IMG/VR virus record: IMGVR_UViG_3300005544_000021
Strand: one strand, 5' to 3'
DNA length: 48,829 nucleotides
Source: a virus
Taxonomy: Duplodnaviria > Heunggongvirae > Uroviricota > Caudoviricetes
The notes beneath the pieces were generated by a model. The model ran no database searches. It was not told the origin of the DNA and was given only the letters and a program-made list of their open reading frames with translations. This document shows positions 1-43,658 of this stretch, piece after piece. Numbering within the stretch: position 1 is the first letter of the stretch; each line of letters begins with the position of its first letter. The translations under genes were made by a program, and so were the position numbers.

Positions 1-528
1 ACCAACATTAGCAGCGGGTTCAACCTCCCGAACTTTTCTAATTTTTCGGGGATCAATATATCTTAGTTCTTGAATACCAGCCTGAGGTTGTTTTTCATCT
101 ATAATAGCATGATAAGGAAGCCTGCCATCCACGTAAAAACGCAGGAAAATATCCTTTGCCCGAACATTCCATTTTAGAAGTTGTTGGATGGTTTCAAACT
201 CGCCTTCAATAGCTTTTTTAGTACTATCTCCAACCATATCATCTAAATCGTCCAGGACTATATCAACAATTTTTTGCCCTTCTTCGTGGACAATAGTTTC
301 GTTGGAAATATTCTTAACCGCCGAATCAATCTCATGATGCAACATCATTTGGCGGTATTTGCTTATGAGTTCGGCTTCGTTTTTAACCGATCCTTCAATA
401 TCAATATATCCCCCATAGTGACCTCCAGCGGCCACAGTAACAGCTCCATCATCTACAACGGGGGGAGTGAAAGATGGAAGGGGTTTAGCTTCCGCTTGTT
501 TACGAATTTCCCAGCCGAATATTCTCAA
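1..528 (-). CDS. gp20: Portal vertex protein (T4 gp20-like), N-terminal 176 codons, runs off the window; not in the ORF track
   Basis: Manual translation from TTG at 528: MRIFGWEIRKQ...DIEGSVKNEAELISKYRQMMLHHEIDSAV...FYVDGRLPYHAIIDEKQPQAGIQELRYIDPRKIRKVRE, matching gp20 motifs. GGAG RBS upstream; follows gp19. Confidence 0.95.
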   Translation of the reverse strand, partial: MRIFGWEIRKQAEAKPLPSFTPPVVDDGAVTVAAGGHYGGYIDIEGSVKNEAELISKYRQMMLHHEIDSAVKNISNETIVHEEGQKIVDIVLDDLDDMVGDSTKKAIEGEFETIQQLLKWNVRAKDIFLRFYVDGRLPYHAIIDEKQPQAGIQELRYIDPRKIRKVREVEPAANVG

Positions 529-959
529 TCAACTTCTCCATGACTTTGTAACATTTTATGAAAATATTCGGTTGTATTATGAGGTAGTTCATAAACATGT
601 GCTTTAAGAATACCTTTACTATGAATATGTTCAATAGCCGCACGATGATGACCATCTAAAATTAGATGATGTTTTCCAACCTTTAATAAAATTGGATTAT
701 GATGTCCTTCAAATGTTGTTTCATCTGGGTCTGCTCCAGTATTTCTTAGCCATTTTTGAGTGGCAATTAAACTTCCAGTATTTACATTAGAAAGTTTAGC
801 TGGAGTAGTATGACTGTTAATATGGTCTACAACTATACCCAATCTTTCCTCTCCAGCAGTTTTATATTCATCATGATATCCATGAAATATCTTAGAAAGT
901 CTAAATGGAGTTTCTTTTGGAAGCTTTACTTCTAATAAAAATTGCTGAAAAGACAACAA
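525..959 (-). CDS. ParB/Srx-like domain protein with capsid-targeting-like leader (MLSFQQFLLE)
   Basis: LIATQKWL...PILLKVGKHHLILDGHHRAA is the ParB/sulfiredoxin-like motif. TTG start with AAGGA RBS; stop overlaps the gp20 start. Confidence 0.75.
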   Translation of the reverse strand: MLSFQQFLLEVKLPKETPFRLSKIFHGYHDEYKTAGEERLGIVVDHINSHTTPAKLSNVNTGSLIATQKWLRNTGADPDETTFEGHHNPILLKVGKHHLILDGHHRAAIEHIHSKGILKAHVYELPHNTTEYFHKMLQSHGEVD

Positions 960-4146: not shown

Positions 4147-4175
4147 TTGACATTTGTAAATAAATATTCTAGAAT
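4147..4175 (+). promoter_or_regulatory. Sigma70-type promoter TTGACA-N17-TAGAAT for the homing endonuclease gene
   Basis: TTGACA at 4147-4152, 17-nt spacer, TAGAAT at 4170-4175; AAAGGAG RBS and ATG 4204 downstream. Confidence 0.7.
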
Positions 4176-4203
4176 ACGATATAAGGTTTCAAAAGGAGAG
4201 AAG

Positions 4204-5046
4204 ATGATACCATACACTTATTTGTTAATTTTTGATCATCCAGACTTACCAAAGAAATATTATTATGGAGTTCAGTATGGAAAGAATGCTCACCCTGATA
4301 ATCTATGGAAAACATATTTTAGTTCAGGAAAAAAAGTTCATGATCTAATAGAACAATATGGAGAAGAAAATTTTGTATTTGAAATACGTCGGATATTTAA
4401 AAATCCAGAACACGCTAAAACATGGGAACAAAAAGTTCTTCAGCGAATGAAAGTAAAGGATAATCCTGATTGGTTAAATGAAAATGACCATTTTGCTCCA
4501 CCAATAATATCTGGCGAAAAACATTGGTTATATGGGAAATCTTTGCCTAAAAATACTTTAAAAAAAGCAGTGCAGTCACGACAAGAAAAACTTAAAGACC
4601 CAGAATACAAAAAATGGCTTTCTGATATTATGTCAAATAGAGATTTTTCTTGGATTACAGAAGAATGGAAAGAGAAAAGAAGTCTACAATATAAGCAATT
4701 ATATAAAAATAGACCAGATTTGATGAAAAGGTTGGTTGAGAATAATAAAGGAACTAAAAATGGGATGTATGGTAAAACCCAAAAAGAAAGTAGCCGACAA
4801 CTTATGAGTCAGGCTCATAAGGGCAAAAAACTTGGAAAAGACAACCCTATGTTTGGAACAACAAGGCCGGATTCAGTTAAAGATGCCATATCTAAATCTC
4901 GTAAAAATAAAAGATGGATATATGATCCCCTAACCCGAATACAAAAATCGGTTGACAAAAATTCCTTGGAAGTGTATCTTGCCCAAGGATGGAAACTGGG
5001 GCGTCTCAAATATAAGGATGATCCAGATTTCCTCTTATCCTTCTGA
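4204..5046 (+). mobile_element. Free-standing GIY-YIG (Seg-like) homing endonuclease with NUMOD3-type repeats
   Basis: PYTYLL...YYYGVQYG...YFSSGKKVHDLIEQYGEENFVFEI catalytic domain; GTKNGMYGKTQKESSRQLMSQAHKG and NPMFGTTRPDSVKDAISKSRK repeats. ATG 4204 preferred over the track TTG because of the RBS. Confidence 0.85.
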
Positions 5047-5070
5047 AAACCTGAGAGGACTAGAGAGAGA

Positions 5071-5301
5071 ATGAGATCAGCACAGCATATGCTAAATCTC
5101 CGAGCTATTCAACATCCTCGGGTTGGGGATAAGTGGTATGATCATGGGGTTCTTCAACTACAAGTTATAAAAATTACGGCATTATATATCCATGTAAAAA
5201 CTGGGAATGGAAAAATAGAACAATATACCCCCACGGAATTTAAAAATCATATGTTATATGATACTATTCCCGATAGAACATGGGCAGATGTGGAGACATA
5301 A
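5071..5301 (+). CDS. Hypothetical protein, 76 aa
   Basis: Open frame with GAGAG-rich upstream region; co-oriented with neighbours. Confidence 0.55.
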   Translation: MRSAQHMLNLRAIQHPRVGDKWYDHGVLQLQVIKITALYIHVKTGNGKIEQYTPTEFKNHMLYDTIPDRTWADVET

Positions 5302-5740
5302 GGTGATCATCCCTCGTTGTGGTCCAGAACCCAATGCTTTTTGTATGTACAGTAGTCTTGTTTGTAAGGATCAATGCGAGCTGAAACGGCGCCGAGAGAT
5401 ATACATGAACCTGGAATACGATAAAGAATTGGCTTGGTTTCGGGACCAAATTGCTACACAATTTCCGCTTTATGGTTATCAAGACCTTGAGCAAAGTATT
5501 AATAAAAGTTCAATAATAGATAGATTTGTTGATTCGTTACAAATTTCTACCTGGATATCTCCACGATATCGTATGTATGCCTATATCCCCCCCGGCTTGC
5601 CGAATTGGCCTGTGCCTTTTATAAATGGAATAGCCTCGGATAAGCGTTGGTATGGTATAGGTTGGCCTCCTGGATTTGAAACTAAGGCAAAAATAGATTA
5701 TATGGCTGCAATCCGGGAATTAGTAGAGGGAACTAGATGA
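5258..5740 (+). CDS. Hypothetical protein (true start uncertain, may be downstream)
   Basis: 160-codon frame; stop overlaps the next ATG (ATGA). Confidence 0.55.
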   Translation: MILFPIEHGQMWRHKVIIPRCGPEPNAFCMYSSLVCKDQCELKRRREIYMNLEYDKELAWFRDQIATQFPLYGYQDLEQSINKSSIIDRFVDSLQISTWISPRYRMYAYIPPGLPNWPVPFINGIASDKRWYGIGWPPGFETKAKIDYMAAIRELVEGTR

Positions 5741-6885: not shown

Positions 6886-7134
6886 CTACTTGAGTTTCTT
6901 AAACGGATTATCATGGTTAGGGTTTGATCTAATTTTATTCCACGCTGATGTTAATTGGTAAGTGGATTCGTTTGATCCCCCATGATCAGGGTGTATTTTC
7001 TTCAAAACTTCATGATATTCCGGCTTTATTTTTGCTAATTCTTGACGCACATTTATTTTGAAGTCCCGAAATATTTTATATGCTTTATGTAGAGGCATAT
7101 CATTTTCCAAAAGAAATTTCTTAAAGCTTACCAT
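6886..7134 (-). CDS. Minimal J-domain (DnaJ-like) protein with capsid-targeting-like leader (MVSFKKFLLE)
   Basis: YHEVLKKIHPDHGGSNESTYQLTSAWNKI (HPD motif). ATG 7134 overlaps the end of gp17. Confidence 0.75.
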   Translation of the reverse strand: MVSFKKFLLENDMPLHKAYKIFRDFKINVRQELAKIKPEYHEVLKKIHPDHGGSNESTYQLTSAWNKIRSNPNHDNPFKKLK

Positions 7135-8774: not shown

Positions 8775-9172
8775 TAATCTTTTTTGATATTCTCTAACAT
8801 CTTGCCAAGTTCGGCTGTAGTTATATGAAGATGTTGATTTACTTCATTTGGTTGATCTTGTCGCTTATTAATAAATTTCGTTTTCTCATTAATCATTTTG
8901 CTTTCCACAAGCTGGCGATTTGAATCCACCAAATTTTTCATGTGCATAGTCAGAACTTCAAAAGCCCGAGGGTGCCCAGATTGTTGGGCAATTTCCATTA
9001 GTTCCGACATGGCAATATTACCTTGTTCAATTGCTAGCTTTATGTTCTTGCGGACAAATTCAAAATCATCTCCCTCAACATCCACATCTATTTCTTTTGG
9101 AATCAAAACATCCGTGGGGATATTAAGAATAGATTCTAAGTCATTCTCGGGGTTTTTATCTTCTTCATTCAT
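8774..9172 (-). CDS. gp16: Terminase small subunit (T4 gp16-like)
   Basis: DDFEFVRKNI...AQQSGHPRAFEV motif; directly upstream of gp17. Confidence 0.9.
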   Translation of the reverse strand: MNEEDKNPENDLESILNIPTDVLIPKEIDVDVEGDDFEFVRKNIKLAIEQGNIAMSELMEIAQQSGHPRAFEVLTMHMKNLVDSNRQLVESKMINEKTKFINKRQDQPNEVNQHLHITTAELGKMLENIKKD

Positions 9173-11067
9173 TTTTTCTTTACCTGTTCATGATCAACAA
9201 CATGGGCATCAATATGGGTTTCCCCTCTTAATTTAGCCGCCATAACTCTATGTAATCCATTATCTATATAATGATCATTCCCTACTCTTAAAACACTAAT
9301 CGGGGATTTATTATTAGAATCAAGATGTTGATCAAGTCCTTTTCTGTGTACGTAGTTTTGCATTGCCTTCAATTTATGAATCGGCAGCTTTTGAATTGGA
9401 GCATTGGAAATTTTATTGTTGAACTCTTTGGGGTTATATTTTGGAAATGGAGTTTGCGTTTTTACTCCAATTTCTCCGGGTTGTTTATTCTTGGTTCTTT
9501 GCAGGAGATAATCTGCCAGCTTTCGGGCTCGGAATGGATCACGCACAACTTCATTAACCACGAAACCCCATGTATGTTTGAAACCTCGGACCTTTCGGGT
9601 TGCTACTCTATGATTCCCATCAACCGTAATATGATGACCAGTTTGTTTATCTTTAACGAAAATTGGAAATCTTGGTTCATGATTTTTCCATTTCTGCATT
9701 ATTTTCTTAGCTACAACCTGAGCACTTACACTGACTTGCGGGCTATGAATTTTATCAAGAGGAATCTTTTGGACTTTCATTCCTTTATACTCGCCACCAT
9801 ACGCTCTGTTAATTTTTACTCCCATTTTATCACTATCATGGTGATAGTCTTTATCTCCTACCCCAAGGTCACTATTATAAATTTGGTCTTTCTTTTTTCC
9901 ATGTTTTTTTCGTAACTTTGATATCATTGCAACAGCAGCCCGTTTTGATAAAATAGATTCCTTTATATCTGAATCAATTACATGTCCCCGAATATGGGTA
10001 AATCCCCGAACAGCTCTTGCGGCGGCTCGGTGATTACCATTAATCATTAAATGAAATCCATTTTTCAAACGCACAAAAATTGGAAGTTTATTTCCGGGTT
10101 GCTTAGATTTACCCCATGTTCCCTCAAGCTTCTTAGAAACAACCCGACTACTAATGGAATCTTGATTAGTGACAACTTTATCAAGAGGAACATTAGCTAC
10201 GGTGTGTTTTCTTGGGGTTCCATTTTGAATCTTATCAAGTTCTTTGTCTATAGCTTGGGAAGAAACCCTTTTGTTCCATTGAGCATTTGGAAAAATTGAT
10301 TGGGTTGGCATTTGTTCCCGATGGAAAGATGCCCCTTTTAATGTTACGTTTCCTTGAGGAGTTTTTTTGTGTATACGATGAATAGAATCTACCTTATCCA
10401 GAGCTTTATATTTTGGAATAATAGCTTCTTTGATATTACTATTTCGCTGTTTAAGTCTCTTGTATATCTGAGAAACATGTTTAATATGACCATAGGCTAA
10501 TTGGGCGGCATGTGGCCCCCCCGTTACAGCAGCCCCTAAGGCCATATGTCCGGGAGACATTCCCTTGAAAGCCAGAGCCCCTAAACCCCCCATTCCCCCT
10601 ACTCCTGCCGCACTATGAACGACATGTTTAATGAAATTCTTTCGGCCCCCATGTCTGCGGATTGTATCCCGAGCATGTATCTTCAGGGCTTGTTTTAGTT
10701 CGCCATCTTCATTTAATCCATCTTTGTTTATTATATTATGTTTTTCAAATCGTTGTAAAATTGAATGTTTTTTATTGTCTTTAGTATAAGGCCAACTAGT
10801 ATAATTATAATTATTGTTTTTATGAGAAACATAACCAGTAGTATGCCATTCATCTTCTGGCCATAAAGTATCATGAGTATGATGTTCTGAATCTCCTACA
10901 ACCAAATCATTTGTTTTAGTAATAACATAACGTAATCCATATTTTGATCTTTTAGATAATCCTTTTATACTTTCAATTGTAGGATTCATATGAACTTGAG
11001 GCATAGATTCAACAAGTCGCTCGTTACGAAATTTCTCAAAACTAATAATGTTATTGCTATTATTCAT
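9169..11067 (-). CDS. 632-aa basic multidomain protein with three ParB/Srx-like domains; probable head-packaged polyprotein
   Basis: INGNHRAAA, VDGNHRVAT and DNGLHRVMA motifs; leader ISFEKFRNERLVE; [LIV]-x-E at domain borders; both ends overlap neighbouring genes (ATGA). Confidence 0.75.
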   Translation of the reverse strand: MNNSNNIISFEKFRNERLVESMPQVHMNPTIESIKGLSKRSKYGLRYVITKTNDLVVGDSEHHTHDTLWPEDEWHTTGYVSHKNNNYNYTSWPYTKDNKKHSILQRFEKHNIINKDGLNEDGELKQALKIHARDTIRRHGGRKNFIKHVVHSAAGVGGMGGLGALAFKGMSPGHMALGAAVTGGPHAAQLAYGHIKHVSQIYKRLKQRNSNIKEAIIPKYKALDKVDSIHRIHKKTPQGNVTLKGASFHREQMPTQSIFPNAQWNKRVSSQAIDKELDKIQNGTPRKHTVANVPLDKVVTNQDSISSRVVSKKLEGTWGKSKQPGNKLPIFVRLKNGFHLMINGNHRAAARAVRGFTHIRGHVIDSDIKESILSKRAAVAMISKLRKKHGKKKDQIYNSDLGVGDKDYHHDSDKMGVKINRAYGGEYKGMKVQKIPLDKIHSPQVSVSAQVVAKKIMQKWKNHEPRFPIFVKDKQTGHHITVDGNHRVATRKVRGFKHTWGFVVNEVVRDPFRARKLADYLLQRTKNKQPGEIGVKTQTPFPKYNPKEFNNKISNAPIQKLPIHKLKAMQNYVHRKGLDQHLDSNNKSPISVLRVGNDHYIDNGLHRVMAAKLRGETHIDAHVVDHEQVKKK

Positions 11068-11910: not shown

Positions 11911-12621
11911 TTATGTTCCCTTCTTTACTTTCTCTATGGGTAAATGTTCAGGTTCAAACATAATATAACTTTTTTTAGAACGAACCCCTTGAGTTTCATT
12001 GGGAGATGTATTACGATACACAAGCCCATGTTTTCCCTTGCTTTTCATATGTTCAATATATTTGTTTACAACCTTGGCTCGTAAATCACTATGAATGCCA
12101 ATTAATCCCGCATCAAAATTATGCATATATGATTTAAATGAATTTCTTGAAGCTGCCGCAGTTCCAAACTTTTTATCGCTTGGGGCTTTACCAGCCATTA
12201 AATGAGAATGAACTTCCTCGGCAGTTTTATCATCAACATGTCTTGTATGTTTAACCCAAGTTTTGAATAGTTCTTTATTCTCGGGTTTAGAAAATACGGT
12301 TCCCGTAATATGAGAACCAATGGCGTGTTGATCCCATCCATTAGATGTTTGATCAAGTTTATGTAGTTTAGAACGACTTGGAGCTTTAGTGCGATAAACC
12401 CCTGGTTCATAATCTTTGCTATGAGTTTTTCCAGGTAGAGGTTCCCGTGGGTCTCCAAACTTATCTGCCATGGATTTATCCGAGGCAAAATGTGAACCCA
12501 AGGCTCTATCAATAGAAAAATCATGTCTATCAACCTTTAGTTTACCCCCTTCTATTTTTCGCAAGGTACCATGATACATCCAATTCGGCATTTCAATTAA
12601 GAATTGTCTAAAGCTTATCAT
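11911..12621 (-). CDS. ADP-ribosyltransferase-fold protein (ART-PolyVal-like) with capsid-targeting-like leader (MISFRQFLIE)
   Basis: MYHGT...GSHFASDKSMADKF...HGLVYRN...E...SYIMFEP pattern. ATG 12621 overlaps the gp14 stop. Confidence 0.65.
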   Translation of the reverse strand: MISFRQFLIEMPNWMYHGTLRKIEGGKLKVDRHDFSIDRALGSHFASDKSMADKFGDPREPLPGKTHSKDYEPGVYRTKAPSRSKLHKLDQTSNGWDQHAIGSHITGTVFSKPENKELFKTWVKHTRHVDDKTAEEVHSHLMAGKAPSDKKFGTAAASRNSFKSYMHNFDAGLIGIHSDLRAKVVNKYIEHMKSKGKHGLVYRNTSPNETQGVRSKKSYIMFEPEHLPIEKVKKGT

Positions 12622-13364: not shown

Positions 13365-14015
13365 TTATCCCTCACTTACTAAAAATTCATCAAGATCGGC
13401 ATGATTATGCAAGAGATAGTGTTGATCATAAGTAAAACTTTGTTTGGGAACCACCTTATAGTCTTGGTCTAAAATTACATAACCCTTATCGGACATGTAG
13501 TTATAAATGGAATCCCGATTTATTGTCTGATGGGTTTCCAGGGCAATAATGATTTTGTTGTTATCCAGAATTTTACTGGCTCCCCGGAGAACAAATTCTT
13601 CCGCTCCTTCCACATCAATTTTTATAAATCCAATATTAGTTGTGTCCCCAAAATAATTATCCAGGGATACACTCTGAACCATTTTAAATCTATTTGGATC
13701 ATGATCATAAACAGTAGCGTTAGCTATTGCCGGGGATATTGTGTGTCCTCCAGGATTGCTTCGGCAAGTCCAAAGCTTGATTAACCCATTTTCTGTTCCT
13801 ACAGCCCCATTAACAAATATTACGTTTTCATCTTTCACATTTTCCATTAGGGTGCGAAAGTTTTCTAGATTTGGTTCAAAGGCGTAAGTTTTCATACATT
13901 GTTTGGCGATCAAAGGAGTATAGCTGCCATGATTAGCCCCAATATCCAACCCAATTTTATCTAGGCAAGATTTGTTTAGACGAGCAATAATATCTCCAAT
14001 TAATAGTTCACTCAT
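13365..14015 (-). CDS. FkbM-family SAM-dependent methyltransferase
   Basis: LDIGANHGSY, YAFEPNLENF, LDNY...FIKIDVEGAEEFVLRGA. Confidence 0.9.
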   Translation of the reverse strand: MSELLIGDIIARLNKSCLDKIGLDIGANHGSYTPLIAKQCMKTYAFEPNLENFRTLMENVKDENVIFVNGAVGTENGLIKLWTCRSNPGGHTISPAIANATVYDHDPNRFKMVQSVSLDNYFGDTTNIGFIKIDVEGAEEFVLRGASKILDNNKIIIALETHQTINRDSIYNYMSDKGYVILDQDYKVVPKQSFTYDQHYLLHNHADLDEFLVSEG

Positions 14016-14799: not shown

Positions 14800-15684
14800 T
14801 TACCATGATCCTGAACTTCCGCCGCCACCAAAATCTCCACCCCCGCCCGCAAAACCCCCAACAATGGCTTTCTTGATATGTTTCTTAATATCAAATTTTG
14901 GAGACTTGTCTTTATTAGAAAACCATTTGGCTTTCCATTTTTTATCCGAATCAGCAGCAAAAGATTTATGAACTGGATTATTTGTGTCCCTCTTAACAAC
15001 ACCTGATGGTTGATAACTAGAGGCTCCAGCGTGCTTCAGAACAACACTATTCTTTTTCTCTTTTGCTGAATAACCCGCTTTTTTGGCAATTTGAGATTTA
15101 GCAAATGCATTATATACTCGTTGCTTCTTTGCTTCATCTCCTCCTCCCGCCATAATCTTTACCCTTGGGGGTTGTTTGTCTCGCAAAAATTCTTTGGTAG
15201 AATCCTTAACCGCCCCAATAATTCTAGAATTAGTTTCGGGAGAATGGTTCTTAGTTTTATGTATTTTCCCATTTATTGTAACAAGAGGCTTATATGTTTT
15301 TCCAAAGACATTCTTGCGGTGTTGAATACGGACAGTATTACCATCAATATTCTTTACTTCCCCCCAGCCCCGATTTTTTCCGGGCAGAGGCTCAAGGGCT
15401 TCTAATAGAAAATTTGTAAAGCTAAGCATTTTATGTTCCTTTAATTTTTTTGGCGGGGTTTTCCCAAAAGAGATTTTCGTGTTTCTATCCACGGGTTCCA
15501 GATGTGAACTATGAACAACATGAGTTAATACTTTATCTTTATGTTTGGCTCTAACATTTTGAACCTTATAAACATTTTCGTATTCTGTTTTTCCAACAAT
15601 CTTAACATAATGTCCAGGTTCCAATGTTTTACTGGTTCTAGTTTTGTTTTTATGTATTGGTCCAACATACTTATAGACAGACAT
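14800..15684 (-). CDS. Basic two-domain hypothetical protein with internal MLSFTNFLLE leader at 15429
   Basis: ATG 15684 immediately follows the gp13 stop; internal ATG 15429 has its own AAGGA RBS; Gly-rich tail. Confidence 0.7.
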   Translation of the reverse strand: MSVYKYVGPIHKNKTRTSKTLEPGHYVKIVGKTEYENVYKVQNVRAKHKDKVLTHVVHSSHLEPVDRNTKISFGKTPPKKLKEHKMLSFTNFLLEALEPLPGKNRGWGEVKNIDGNTVRIQHRKNVFGKTYKPLVTINGKIHKTKNHSPETNSRIIGAVKDSTKEFLRDKQPPRVKIMAGGGDEAKKQRVYNAFAKSQIAKKAGYSAKEKKNSVVLKHAGASSYQPSGVVKRDTNNPVHKSFAADSDKKWKAKWFSNKDKSPKFDIKKHIKKAIVGGFAGGGGDFGGGGSSGSW

Positions 15685-15685
15685 C

Positions 15686-16654
15686 TCACCCCACAAACAT
15701 TGACACGGGAATACTCAAACTATTAATCAATTCATACTCAAGTTCTTTCTTTTCTTGTACTGCCTCATCATAAATTTCCTGACCATTAAAACTCATGCCT
15801 CCCGGCATTTGCATGTTTCCAAACTTCTTTAAGTTACTGCCCCACTGAAGTTTAATCAAACACGTGGCATATTCCTGGAGCCACCAATTACTCCAAACTT
15901 CGGGATATGTGGCGGGATCAATTACCTGATAACATTCCACGATAATAAAATTTCCATCTTCTATTTGAGAATAATCCATATCAATATAAAGCTTATTCTG
16001 GTAGCGGTTGAACCGTAAAGGCTGTTTTCCTACTAAGATTTCCTCAATCAAGGCCACGTTTTGCATCGCCGTGTAATATGGAACAATCTCTAGATTATTA
16101 AACATATAAAGATCACTTAAAACCATTTGATATTTTAGGTTCCAGAGAATATTACTAGAGCTTGCTGAAATACCAACATCAAAAATTTGATTTACCCCAA
16201 TAATGTTTTCTGGTAAGGGTATAAAGCCTCCTAGTTGTGAGGTAATAGAAGCATTTGACCCTGTGGAGGTTGTTATTCCAATTGTTGGGGGGTTTGCATA
16301 GTCTTTGCCGTTTGTAAAAACTAAAGAAGTTATTGTACCATTTCCATTTGTTTGTACATAACCATTTGCCTCACTACCGTTTCCCGTAAAGGTAAGAAGA
16401 TCACCGTTTGTATAGTTTATTCCCCCATTTGCAATGGTTAGATCATAAATTGAAGTTGAGTGATTATTTGGAGTTAATTGATATTTGTAATAAATCTTAT
16501 CACTAGCATCCATGTGATAATCATAGAATTTCTGAAGGGCAAAATCTACCCGATTATCAACTTGCTCATCTGAGACGTTGATTTTTATGACGGGCTGGCC
16601 TAAATTTTCTAGGCAGTATTGTTTGAATGATGCTTTATTGGTTGGAACAGCCAT
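15686..16654 (-). CDS. gp13: Neck protein (T4 gp13-like) with ~80-aa inserted domain
   Basis: YCLENLGQPVIKINVSDEQVDNRV...QKFYDYHMD and WLQEYATCLIKLQWGSNLKKF...MPGG...NGQEIYDEA. Confidence 0.95.
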   Translation of the reverse strand: MAVPTNKASFKQYCLENLGQPVIKINVSDEQVDNRVDFALQKFYDYHMDASDKIYYKYQLTPNNHSTSIYDLTIANGGINYTNGDLLTFTGNGSEANGYVQTNGNGTITSLVFTNGKDYANPPTIGITTSTGSNASITSQLGGFIPLPENIIGVNQIFDVGISASSSNILWNLKYQMVLSDLYMFNNLEIVPYYTAMQNVALIEEILVGKQPLRFNRYQNKLYIDMDYSQIEDGNFIIVECYQVIDPATYPEVWSNWWLQEYATCLIKLQWGSNLKKFGNMQMPGGMSFNGQEIYDEAVQEKKELEYELINSLSIPVSMFVG

Positions 16655-41600: not shown

Positions 41601-42137
41601 TTAAGCCCCATGTTTCTTTATCCATTCATTTGAGAAGTATTTACGCTTGTATTCCTCGCCTTCCGTATGTCCAACCTTGATAGCTAGATCAGGAAACTGT
41701 TTCTGTTTGGTAAGCGGCACTGTTTCTCTCTTGAAATGAAAATGGTGCATCTGATCATGAGTGGGGTCAACAAAATGCTTGATTTCTGGTATCTCTACCC
41801 AGGAATGTGAGCCTTCTTGTCTTCGTTTCCGTCCAGGAAAAGTAGTTAATTGATGAGTTGATGTTACTGGAGACGTATAATAACCATTTAAAACCTTAGC
41901 GGAGGGATAATGTGGTTTCAGGGCCTTAACTACCGCCCGAGAAACAGCCTCACAGCGTCCAAAACAGGCGAGACGATGACTTGGAGCTTTTGAAGATGCA
42001 TCCGTAAATCCCTTGTCCTTGGCATGTTTGATATAATAATCAAGCCGGGCCTTTGATGCCAATTCTCTAATCTTTGGCTCATGCTCGGACTTGAATCTTT
42101 CTGTTATTAAAGTGATGAACTCCCCAAAGCTTAACAT
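41601..42137 (-). CDS. Papain/transglutaminase-like Cys-His-Asp protein with capsid-targeting-like leader (MLSFGEFITLITE)
   Basis: GRCEAVSRAV ... HSWVEI ... VDPTHDQ spacing of a Cys-His-Asp triad. Confidence 0.65.
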   Translation of the reverse strand: MLSFGEFITLITERFKSEHEPKIRELASKARLDYYIKHAKDKGFTDASSKAPSHRLACFGRCEAVSRAVVKALKPHYPSAKVLNGYYTSPVTSTHQLTTFPGRKRRQEGSHSWVEIPEIKHFVDPTHDQMHHFHFKRETVPLTKQKQFPDLAIKVGHTEGEEYKRKYFSNEWIKKHGA

Positions 42138-42791: not shown

Positions 42792-43658
42792 TTATCCTTT
42801 TCTTCTACTCGTTAAATGTTTGATTCCATCATGAACTAAATGTCCAACCCAATTTACTATTCTGGAGGACGTAATAATACGAGGTTGCTTAGCTATATGT
42901 ATCTTGGCTCCCGGATGTAAAATGAATTCATATTCATCTGGGTGTTCCGACACATGACTTACATAAGCCCCATGTGAACCCTTGGGAACATGAATTGTCA
43001 CATAATGACGGTTTTCTTCTTCATCTTCCTTGGAAAAATCTCGGGCAATATCTCGCCTTAATGACGTACTGGTAAAGGCGGGAAGATGAATATGAAAATG
43101 TCCGTGTTTATTTTCTCCGGGAGCCTGATACATTTGCTTAATTGCCGAACGAGTCATTCCCGTGTGAACGGCAAAATCGTGGGGTGTTTCATGCTGAACC
43201 AGGGCTTCTTTTATTCTTCCAGGAATCTTTGAATCATCATAACGATTAGAGTGCCCCATGATGTGTTTATTTATTGGGACGCTTGAACCCCCAGTATACT
43301 GTTTCAGGGCTTCCTTATGATCATCATTAAATGTATAATGGTTAGTTAATTTATTATGAAGTCTATTAACATAGTCAGGTTTAGTATTCTTATCAAGTTT
43401 AAAATCATCAACATGAACAATTTGGGCTTTTATTAGTTTGGGTTTATTTGGGTTAACATGCATATATTTCTTTTGGGCCAGAATATTCTTTAACGCATTT
43501 TTATGTTTCTGGGGATCATCCAGAGAAGCATGACCATATACCCCCCCAAATTGATCCACAAATCTAGAAACCAATCCTTCCGAAACATCTCCATTTTTTC
43601 CGATAAAACCTAGAAACATTTTCTGATATTTTGGGACGATATGTCTTAGTTTCTTCAT
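42792..43658 (-). CDS. Alt/VIP2-like NAD-dependent ADP-ribosyltransferase
   Basis: ALKQYTGGS..INKH, FTSTSL, TIHVPKGSHGAYV, DEYEFILHPG (STS and ExE motifs); MKKLRHIV leader. Confidence 0.85.
   Translation of the reverse strand: MKKLRHIVPKYQKMFLGFIGKNGDVSEGLVSRFVDQFGGVYGHASLDDPQKHKNALKNILAQKKYMHVNPNKPKLIKAQIVHVDDFKLDKNTKPDYVNRLHNKLTNHYTFNDDHKEALKQYTGGSSVPINKHIMGHSNRYDDSKIPGRIKEALVQHETPHDFAVHTGMTRSAIKQMYQAPGENKHGHFHIHLPAFTSTSLRRDIARDFSKEDEEENRHYVTIHVPKGSHGAYVSHVSEHPDEYEFILHPGAKIHIAKQPRIITSSRIVNWVGHLVHDGIKHLTSRRKG

Follow-up and report, generated by a model that had tools for sequence, protein, structure and literature searches.

The stretch of viral DNA considered here, 48,829 nucleotides long and referred to throughout as the window (IMG/VR record IMGVR_UViG_3300005544_000021), comes from an uncultured myovirus of the T4 superfamily and carries on its minus strand an open reading frame (ORF), 9169..11067, whose product of 632 residues and 72 kDa is here called P0001. 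Comparison of P0001 with its homologues indicates that it is probably a packaged head polyprotein, in which one leader precedes five modules and the prohead protease would cut the chain into five basic proteins that are ejected from the head.

Organization of P0001

The leader, residues 1-20 (11008..11067; all features are on the minus strand unless stated otherwise), is composed of MNNSNN, ISFEKFRNE and RLVE and resembles the T4 capsid-targeting sequence (CTS). It is followed by module A (residues 21-120, 10708..11007), a conserved α/β domain according to alignment and model, which ends in GLNE, and by module B (residues 121-214, 10426..10707), which is Gly/Ala-rich and moderately hydrophobic and ends in NIKE. 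The remainder of the chain is made up of three modules resembling the ParB/sulfiredoxin (Srx) superfamily: P1 (residues 215-370, 9958..10425), which has a long N-terminal extension, bears the motif NGNHR and ends in DIKE; P2 (residues 371-506, 9550..9957), which bears DGNHR and ends in VVNE; and P3 (residues 507-632, 9172..9549), which bears NGLHR and runs to the stop codon. The masses predicted for A, B, P1, P2 and P3 are 11.8, 10.0, 17.5, 15.5 and 14.5 kDa with isoelectric points of 8.0, 10.8, 10.5, 10.2 and 10.1 respectively (four of them at least 10), and by size and charge the predicted products fall in the class of the T4 internal proteins, the basic members of which are of approximately 8-20 kDa (PMC9026906).

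Segments ending in RLVE, GLNE, NIKE, DIKE and VVNE had been singled out in an earlier reading made from the letters of the window (the sequence-only reading), and these endings, at E20, E120, E214, E370 and E506 respectively, prove to be exactly the five occurrences of [LIVM]-x-E that the protein contains. Nineteen glutamates lie downstream of the leader and four of these have [LIVM] at the P3 position, namely precisely those at the four borders set by the N-termini of stand-alone homologues; the chance of picking those four among the 19 is, by our own arithmetic, 1 in 3876. The joints fall in low-confidence or coil parts of the structure models and, in comparison with the leader, they have lost the aromatic targeting residues and retained the hydrophobic-x-Glu part.

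Joints in the homologues of P0001

A collection of 1.84 billion representative proteins yielded 123 homologues of P0001, most of which are small proteins that match one module and have a T4-like leader at their start. In 69 stand-alone homologues the match is N-terminal and a leader is present; their leader glutamate was mapped onto P0001, and its offset from the P0001 site was zero in 31, at most two residues in 41 and at most four in 67; every offset of three or four residues sits at the P0001 leader, where E16 and E20 compete. By P0001 site, the tallies of leader glutamates were 20 for E506, 13 for E20, five for E370, two for E214 and one for E120. Among the stand-alone proteins, the leader glutamate of P0007, P0028, P0042 and P0061 maps to E370, and P0005 opens with MKSFLE/SILNKYKA at the border of module P1 (here and below the slash marks the proposed cut). 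P0003, which is approximately 98% identical to P0001 over module B, opens with MKTFRESLTE/DGELK where P0001 has KDGLNE/DGELK and retains the next joint, NIKE/A; judged by these sequences, the two proteins are related by a natural fusion or fission exactly at E120/D121. In P0002 (528 residues, locus L003:248-1834, on a contig of 1.9 kb) a leader is followed by module A and three ParB modules, the last of the P1 type, with glutamate joints and no module B. Two of the P0002 joints (MSLWQKIKKHFTE/S and SWGEKLFGE/A) resemble complete fossil leaders, a Met included, which points to the fusion of neighbouring leader-bearing genes. Across the relatives, the same module types are thus met in other orders (P0002) and as stand-alone or leader-started modules (P0003, P0005).

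Within the multi-module homologues, [LIVM]-x-E was present at 17 of the 20 internal module starts (counted within -9 to +5 of the mapped border), against a background of 14% in random 14-residue windows. In the module cores of 118 homologues the motif was observed 53 times, compared with 96.4 ± 9.0 when each core was shuffled separately, and none of 300 shuffles was as low; the controls E-x-[LIVM] (105 vs 96) and [LIVM]-E (100 vs 97) were flat and [LIVM]-x-D was enriched (207 vs 172). Beyond the cores, [LIVM]-x-E was itself enriched (340 vs 183). Cleavage at the motif would give at least two pieces of at least 60 residues in 34 of the 97 family members with a leader, with a median piece of 115 residues. 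Two homologues that are two-ParB polyproteins are encoded in other T4-like phages among structural genes of the T4 type, P0106 between gp14 and gp15 and P0014 beside gp2.

The sequence-only reading had proposed that one leader carries about five small proteins into the head for separate release, and it had held that a lack of conservation of the glutamate sites at domain borders in homologues would speak against this. Given that the leader glutamates of 41 of the 69 stand-alone proteins map within two residues of a P0001 site, and 67 within four, and that the motif recurs at most joints, the sites are conserved at those borders, and separate release behind a single leader is supported at the comparative level.

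Leader and head protease

The T4 CTS is MKTYQEFIAE, and the T4 internal proteins are cut once, after this sequence (PMC8442874). Targeting depends on residues 4 and 7 of the CTS and processing on residues 8 and 10; an Asp placed at position 10 abolishes cleavage, and the protease gp21 cleaves after L/I-X-E (PMC9026906), in agreement with the specificity on which the sequence-only reading had relied. The leader of P0001 has a six-residue N-terminal extension and Phe at both equivalents of T4 positions 4 and 7 and, with L-V-E at E20, it possesses the targeting and the processing positions of a T4-type propeptide. A strict form of the leader (F/Y at 4, F/Y at 7, L/I at 8 and E at 10) is present in 45 of the 123 homologues and a looser form ending in [LIVMF]-x-E in a further 52, which brings the leader-bearing homologues to 97; the consensus of the homologue leaders is M-K-S/T-F-K-Q-F-L-x-E. 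A gene for a protease of the gp21 type lies on the same contig (Peptidase_S77, G000:C1:3609-4154, E 1.4e-32, above the Pfam cut-off), and adjoining it are a scaffold-like protein dense in [LIVM]-x-E and a capsid protein whose propeptide ends in LLE/A.

Two more basic proteins are encoded beside the protease gene, before the start of the window (G000:C1:5581-6291 and 4554-5588), and their N-termini are leader-like (MIKRFRDILNE/ and MLNE/); a papain-like peptidase gene is also present within the head module. A second class of leader, M-[K/R]-L-[I/V]-D-L-F-E followed by ARFQE, stands ahead of module A in many of the longer multi-module homologues (P0015, P0018-P0020, P0036, P0045, P0085, P0118 and P0122) and probably serves a different clade of phages as its targeting tag.

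The ParB/Srx-like modules

Three ParB/Srx-like domains in P0001 and a fourth in ORF 525..959 had been recognized in the sequence-only reading, and paralogy, profile and fold all bear this out. Blastp shows residues 215-370, 371-506 and 507-632 to be paralogues (2e-19, 2.5e-9 and 7e-6) and ORF 525..959 to be related to them too (5e-5), and all four domains bear (D/N)G(N/L/H)HR. Module P1 matches a PHROG ParB-like profile (3.7e-8), and a profile of 36 family members compared with solved structures matches SbnI (2e-4), ParB (5e-4) and sulfiredoxin (8e-3); the family motif DG(N/H/L)HR aligns with DGVHR of SbnI, SGCHR of Srx and AGERR of ParB. The AlphaFold model of residues 507-632 has a predicted local distance difference test score (pLDDT) of 95 and a predicted template modelling score of 0.87; the top 50 matches to it found by Foldseek in the PDB are all ParB, Srx, SbnI, SerK, Noc, KorB or PadC, with alignments of approximately 77-80 residues at approximately 2.5 Å and a probability of 1.00. 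The fold of residues 215-370 and 371-506 is assigned via their paralogy to this modelled segment. In the alignment of the 36 sequences G98 is invariant, H100 and R101 are present in at least 90% and one Gln is invariant or nearly so; these near-invariant Gln, Gly, His and Arg residues indicate a conserved nucleotide pocket.

The Pfam ParB models (PF02195 and PF08857) gave no match above the gathering score for these modules. Below threshold there were matches to ParBc_2 (0.055, ORF 525..959) and to the VapB-like PF23719 (0.0018) and a 'faint' precomputed match to PF02195, and membership of the superfamily therefore rests on the profile-to-PDB and fold evidence. Sub-threshold matches to PF23719, 'Antitoxin VapB-like', were seen in eight of the 36 family members (best E 1.2e-5), and the sequences suggest that this family may itself be a ParB/Srx relative. 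Identification of the modules as a partition ParB was rejected, given that the helix-turn-helix (HTH), the dimerisation domain and the GERR box of such proteins are absent, and that the motif is G-x-H-R. The modules are 126-156 residues long and only an N-domain core of approximately 80 residues aligns to ParB; as seen in sequence and model, they are a separate, minimal, phage-specific branch of ParB/Srx with an added N-terminal helix. The comparison with the DdrB-like ParB clade consisted of a tblastn search of 50,697 phage records, presumably with phage P1 among them, which gave no match. Members of that clade are recognized by a particular helix bearing a conserved Tyr and by an Asp or Asn closing strand 2 (PMC5512222).

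Modules A and B

Module A, which in the homologues follows the leader more often than any other module, is characterized by the motifs VHxNPS...RFVI...GDS...TH...DHP, with invariant Lys, Arg, His and Gly residues and the NP and DHP motifs. Its model is of pLDDT 86 (96 in the core), but unlike residues 507-632, for which structure prediction returned the ParB/Srx fold, module A gave no convincing known fold: Foldseek found nothing in the PDB at E <= 0.001, and the best hit of a wide VIA search, at Z 4.8, was to a gelsolin/ADF-H-like structure and unconvincing. The atlas neighbours of module A are viral hypothetical proteins and one RHS-associated cluster (TM 0.57).

Module B contains a Gly-rich stretch at residues 152-165 of P0001, AAGVGGMGGLGALA, and small-xxx-small repeats, and to this extent its description as a Gly-zipper hydrophobic domain in the sequence-only reading stands. 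The label is descriptive only, however, given that no Pfam family, Gly-zipper families included, matched at E up to 5 and that the best 19-residue Kyte-Doolittle mean is 1.35, which is moderately hydrophobic. An atlas search with module B was without informative match. A confident transmembrane call was dropped, the hydropathy being too low for it, and module B is possibly a membrane-active segment.

Genomic setting of P0001

The P0001 sequence is present, 100% identical, on three contigs from separate samples, and an assembly chimera is thereby ruled out. Its ATG overlaps the stop codon of the gp15 tail-sheath stabiliser gene (ATGA), and its own stop codon, TGA at 9169-9171, overlaps the ATG of the small-terminase gene in the same manner (ATGA); the translation of P0001 is thereby coupled to that of gp15 and of the small terminase, which shows that P0001 is translated late with the structural genes. 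The order within this late block is gp13 (15686..16654), gp14, a 236-residue ORF, gp15, P0001, small terminase and large terminase. The large terminase shares 52% identity with its counterparts in the Sinorhizobium phages phiN3 and phiM12. In phiN3, gp15 directly adjoins the small terminase with no P0001-type gene between them, and P0001 is thus a lineage-specific insertion. Neither tblastn of P0001 nor megablast of its region gave a match in the 50,697 phage records, a search with full-length P0001 in 5.8 billion proteins returned P0001 itself and nothing else, and a related-locus search with P0001 as the query found no relatives. Two further genes of the region encode a SegE-like GIY-YIG homing endonuclease (4147-5046, plus strand, flanked by the terminase and sheath genes) and a Methyltransf_21 protein (13365-14015, amid the neck genes).

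Other leader-bearing ORFs of the window

The pattern M-x-S-F-x-x-F-[L/I]-x-E, or a close variant of it, opens six minus-strand ORFs of the window, P0001 included, which start at 959, 7134, 11067, 12621, 15429 and 42137; the five besides P0001 show the strict form of the leader. The ORF at 525..959 encodes the stand-alone fourth ParB/Srx-like protein, of 144 residues, with the leader (M)LSFQQFLLE and the motif DGHHR. Its sole internal [LIVM]-x-E (VYE/L) is situated just past the final strand, where it is in register with the polyprotein joints, and by this sequence the protein may shed a 24-residue C-terminal tail to the protease. The other four are candidates for leader-borne cargo: a 236-residue protein between gp14 and gp15 (11911..12621, MISFRQFLIE) with an unrelated body; an 82-residue protein (6886..7134, MVSFKKFLLE) with an HPD motif; a 209-residue protein (14800..15429, MLSFTNFLLE) with no internal [LIVM]-x-E; and a 178-residue protein (41601..42137) with the leader MLSFGEFITLITE. 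The interiors of the window cargo proteins hold four [LIVM]-x-E against 10.8 expected (P ~0.014), compared with 76 against 63 expected in the tail, neck and terminase proteins of the window.

The ORF at 6886..7134 also has a sub-threshold match to DnaJ (E 0.0027), and its product could, by sequence, be a head-packaged J-domain protein that engages the host DnaK. Directly after the gp6 baseplate gene, a 288-residue ADP-ribosyltransferase is encoded (42792-43658, PF03496, E 4.7e-16) with a possible propeptide ending in VSE/G at residue 27, and its sequence is such that it could be a counterpart of T4 Alt.

Alternative explanations

Several observations weigh against the reading of P0001 as a polyprotein that is cut at every joint. 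The five motifs compare with 4.9 ± 1.9 in shuffled sequences, so that their number is what composition predicts; the proposal of a motif enrichment in P0001 was consequently dropped, and the argument rests on the placement of the motifs and on the homologues. Within the leader, E16, the equivalent of T4 position 10, has Arg at P3 and is then followed by L-V-E at E20, and at the joint E506 the P3 residue is Val instead of Leu or Ile, a residue found there in only two of the 45 strict leaders. In the module cores [LIVM]-x-x-E is also mildly depleted (72 vs 96), which the model does not explain, and the homologues are mutually related, such that the shuffle z-scores overstate their independence. 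Furthermore, the internal proteins of T4 undergo no more than a single cut (PMC8442874), and the release of folded modules by multiple cuts is therefore without experimental precedent there. Finally, cleavage and packaging are deduced from the comparison of sequences, on a metagenomic contig without a cultured host.

Given the single cut of the T4 proteins, it could be that only the leader is removed and that P0001 persists as a single 70-kDa 'polyvalent' effector with joints inaccessible to the protease, in the way that the N4 virion RNA polymerase is among the polyvalent proteins packaged unprocessed (PMC5512222; PMC8442874 for T4); a motif count no higher than chance is also in keeping with this. 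Such an outcome is nevertheless unlikely, given that it leaves unexplained both the motif at 17 of the 20 joints, across differing module orders, and the depletion of the motif in the cores, that it fails to explain why each module is also encoded as a separate leader-bearing protein whose cut point is in register, and that the joints are located in stretches which are modelled as coil or with low confidence. The joints of P0002, which retain whole fossil leaders, and the variable order of the modules among relatives raise the possibility that the glutamate motifs are fossil leaders of fused genes, or recombination joints, and are not maintained as cleavage sites. This is less probable again: the P0001 joints dropped the aromatic targeting residues and preserved only hydrophobic-x-Glu, fossil joints would not produce a depletion of the motif within modules, and the solo ParB protein (525..959), in which no fusion is involved, likewise has its one internal motif at this position past the domain.

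The most improbable of the explanations considered is that P0001 is not a virion protein at all but a cytoplasmic multi-ParB protein, involved for example in the handling of DNA during packaging, with only a coincidental resemblance to the CTS. The two terminase genes, small and large, do follow immediately downstream of the gene, and proteins of the ParB family bind DNA and nucleoside triphosphates (NTPs). However, the leader is common to six unrelated ORFs of the window and to 97 of the 123 homologues, the modules are without the HTH and dimerisation domains of ParB proper, and no gene of this kind separates gp15 from the small terminase in the closest cultured relatives, which indicates that P0001 is not part of the packaging machine. 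Processing of a packaged polyprotein by the head protease is thus the preferred explanation.

Proposed pathway and relation to known systems

In the proposed pathway, P0001 is translated late, together with the structural genes to which the gene overlaps couple it. By homology to T4 IPI-III, its leader would direct the entire 72-kDa chain to the prohead, into the scaffolding core. There, as the comparative evidence suggests, the gp21-type serine protease would cut after Glu in [L/I/V]-x-E, taking the leader off at E20 (or E16) and separating the modules at E120, E214, E370 and E506. By analogy, the five resulting proteins, of 10-17.5 kDa, would remain with the packed DNA and enter the cell alongside it. 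Three of these products would be minimal ParB/Srx domains with the G-x-H-R pocket of Srx and SbnI, a feature seen in fold and motif, from which an activity may be predicted: most likely they would be phosphotransferases or hydrolases that bind NTPs, or effectors that nick DNA, and would serve host takeover or counter-defence as infection begins. Polyproteins of this kind would appear, from the sequences of their relatives, to arise by fusion of adjoining leader-bearing genes and to split again at the same joints.

Processing of the T4 CTS by gp21 is textbook knowledge for single-module proteins that are cut once. As with T4 IPI, IPII, IPIII and Alt, P0001 has an N-terminal leader of approximately 10-20 residues with aromatic targeting positions and an L/I-x-E end, a gp21-type protease is encoded in the same genome, the predicted mature products are small and very basic, and variable bodies follow a conserved leader. 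In its sequence features P0001 thus belongs with the T4-type CTS-bearing internal head proteins. Unlike those single-module proteins with one cut, P0001 combines one leader and five modules with further protease motifs between them, its gene stands within the neck/terminase block and not in a separate internal-protein locus, and the bodies of its modules are without sequence similarity to the T4 internal proteins.

P0001 also resembles the polyvalent proteins of phages and conjugative elements, among them those with P1 DdrB-like ParB domains in phage heads (Iyer et al. 2017, PMC5512222), in which ParB/Srx domains are recurrent and have been proposed to be NTP-regulated DNases (PMC5512222). Like them, it consists of effector-type modules, five in number and of three kinds, is encoded amid late virion genes and is predicted to be delivered with the DNA, and it contains the at least two effector-type domains by which such proteins are defined. 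It differs from them in that it is without a built-in zincin-like metallopeptidase, so that processing would be by a trans-acting head protease that recognizes short motifs, and in that its modules are minimal and are also found as stand-alone leader-bearing proteins. A further likeness is to the inner-body and ejection proteins of phiKZ, 201phi2-1 and SPN3US, which share a Glu-terminal three-residue motif, a T4-related prohead protease and the possibility of several cuts. The proteases of the phiKZ group, however, cut after S/A-x-E and the leader type also differs; moreover, the multiple cuts in phiKZ-like phages destroy long propeptides and are not described as freeing modules that fold and evolve independently. 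The P0001 modules share their fold with the N-domain of the ParB CTPases, with sulfiredoxin and with the serine kinases SbnI and SerK, and the pocket motif DGNHR of the P0001 family corresponds to SGCHR in Srx and DGVHR in SbnI, although the Cys of Srx is absent from the modules. In the literature searched, no paper was found that pairs a capsid-targeting sequence with the polyprotein release of modules.

If this reading of P0001 is correct, the head protease would also process a polyprotein, much as happens in RNA viruses; a single tag would load several independent proteins at a fixed 1:1 stoichiometry, and modules would be gained and lost at the cut sites. A sequence rule for predicting injected effectors would follow, consisting of a leader, motif-bearing joints and depletion of the motif within modules, and the phage-specific ParB/Srx branch, together with the families of modules A and B, would be candidate early effectors. 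T4 packages foreign proteins that are fused to its leader, which suggests a route for engineering. More tentatively, and with the balance tipping somewhat against it, the leader and head protease could form a general platform by which one chain is loaded and many proteins are released, with exchangeable cargo, and the three diverged ParB/Srx paralogues could constitute injected NTP-dependent effectors of a new class, each directed at its own host or defence target. Release of several proteins from a single packaged chain would, if true, account for the diversification of first-injected proteins in uncultured T4-like phages.

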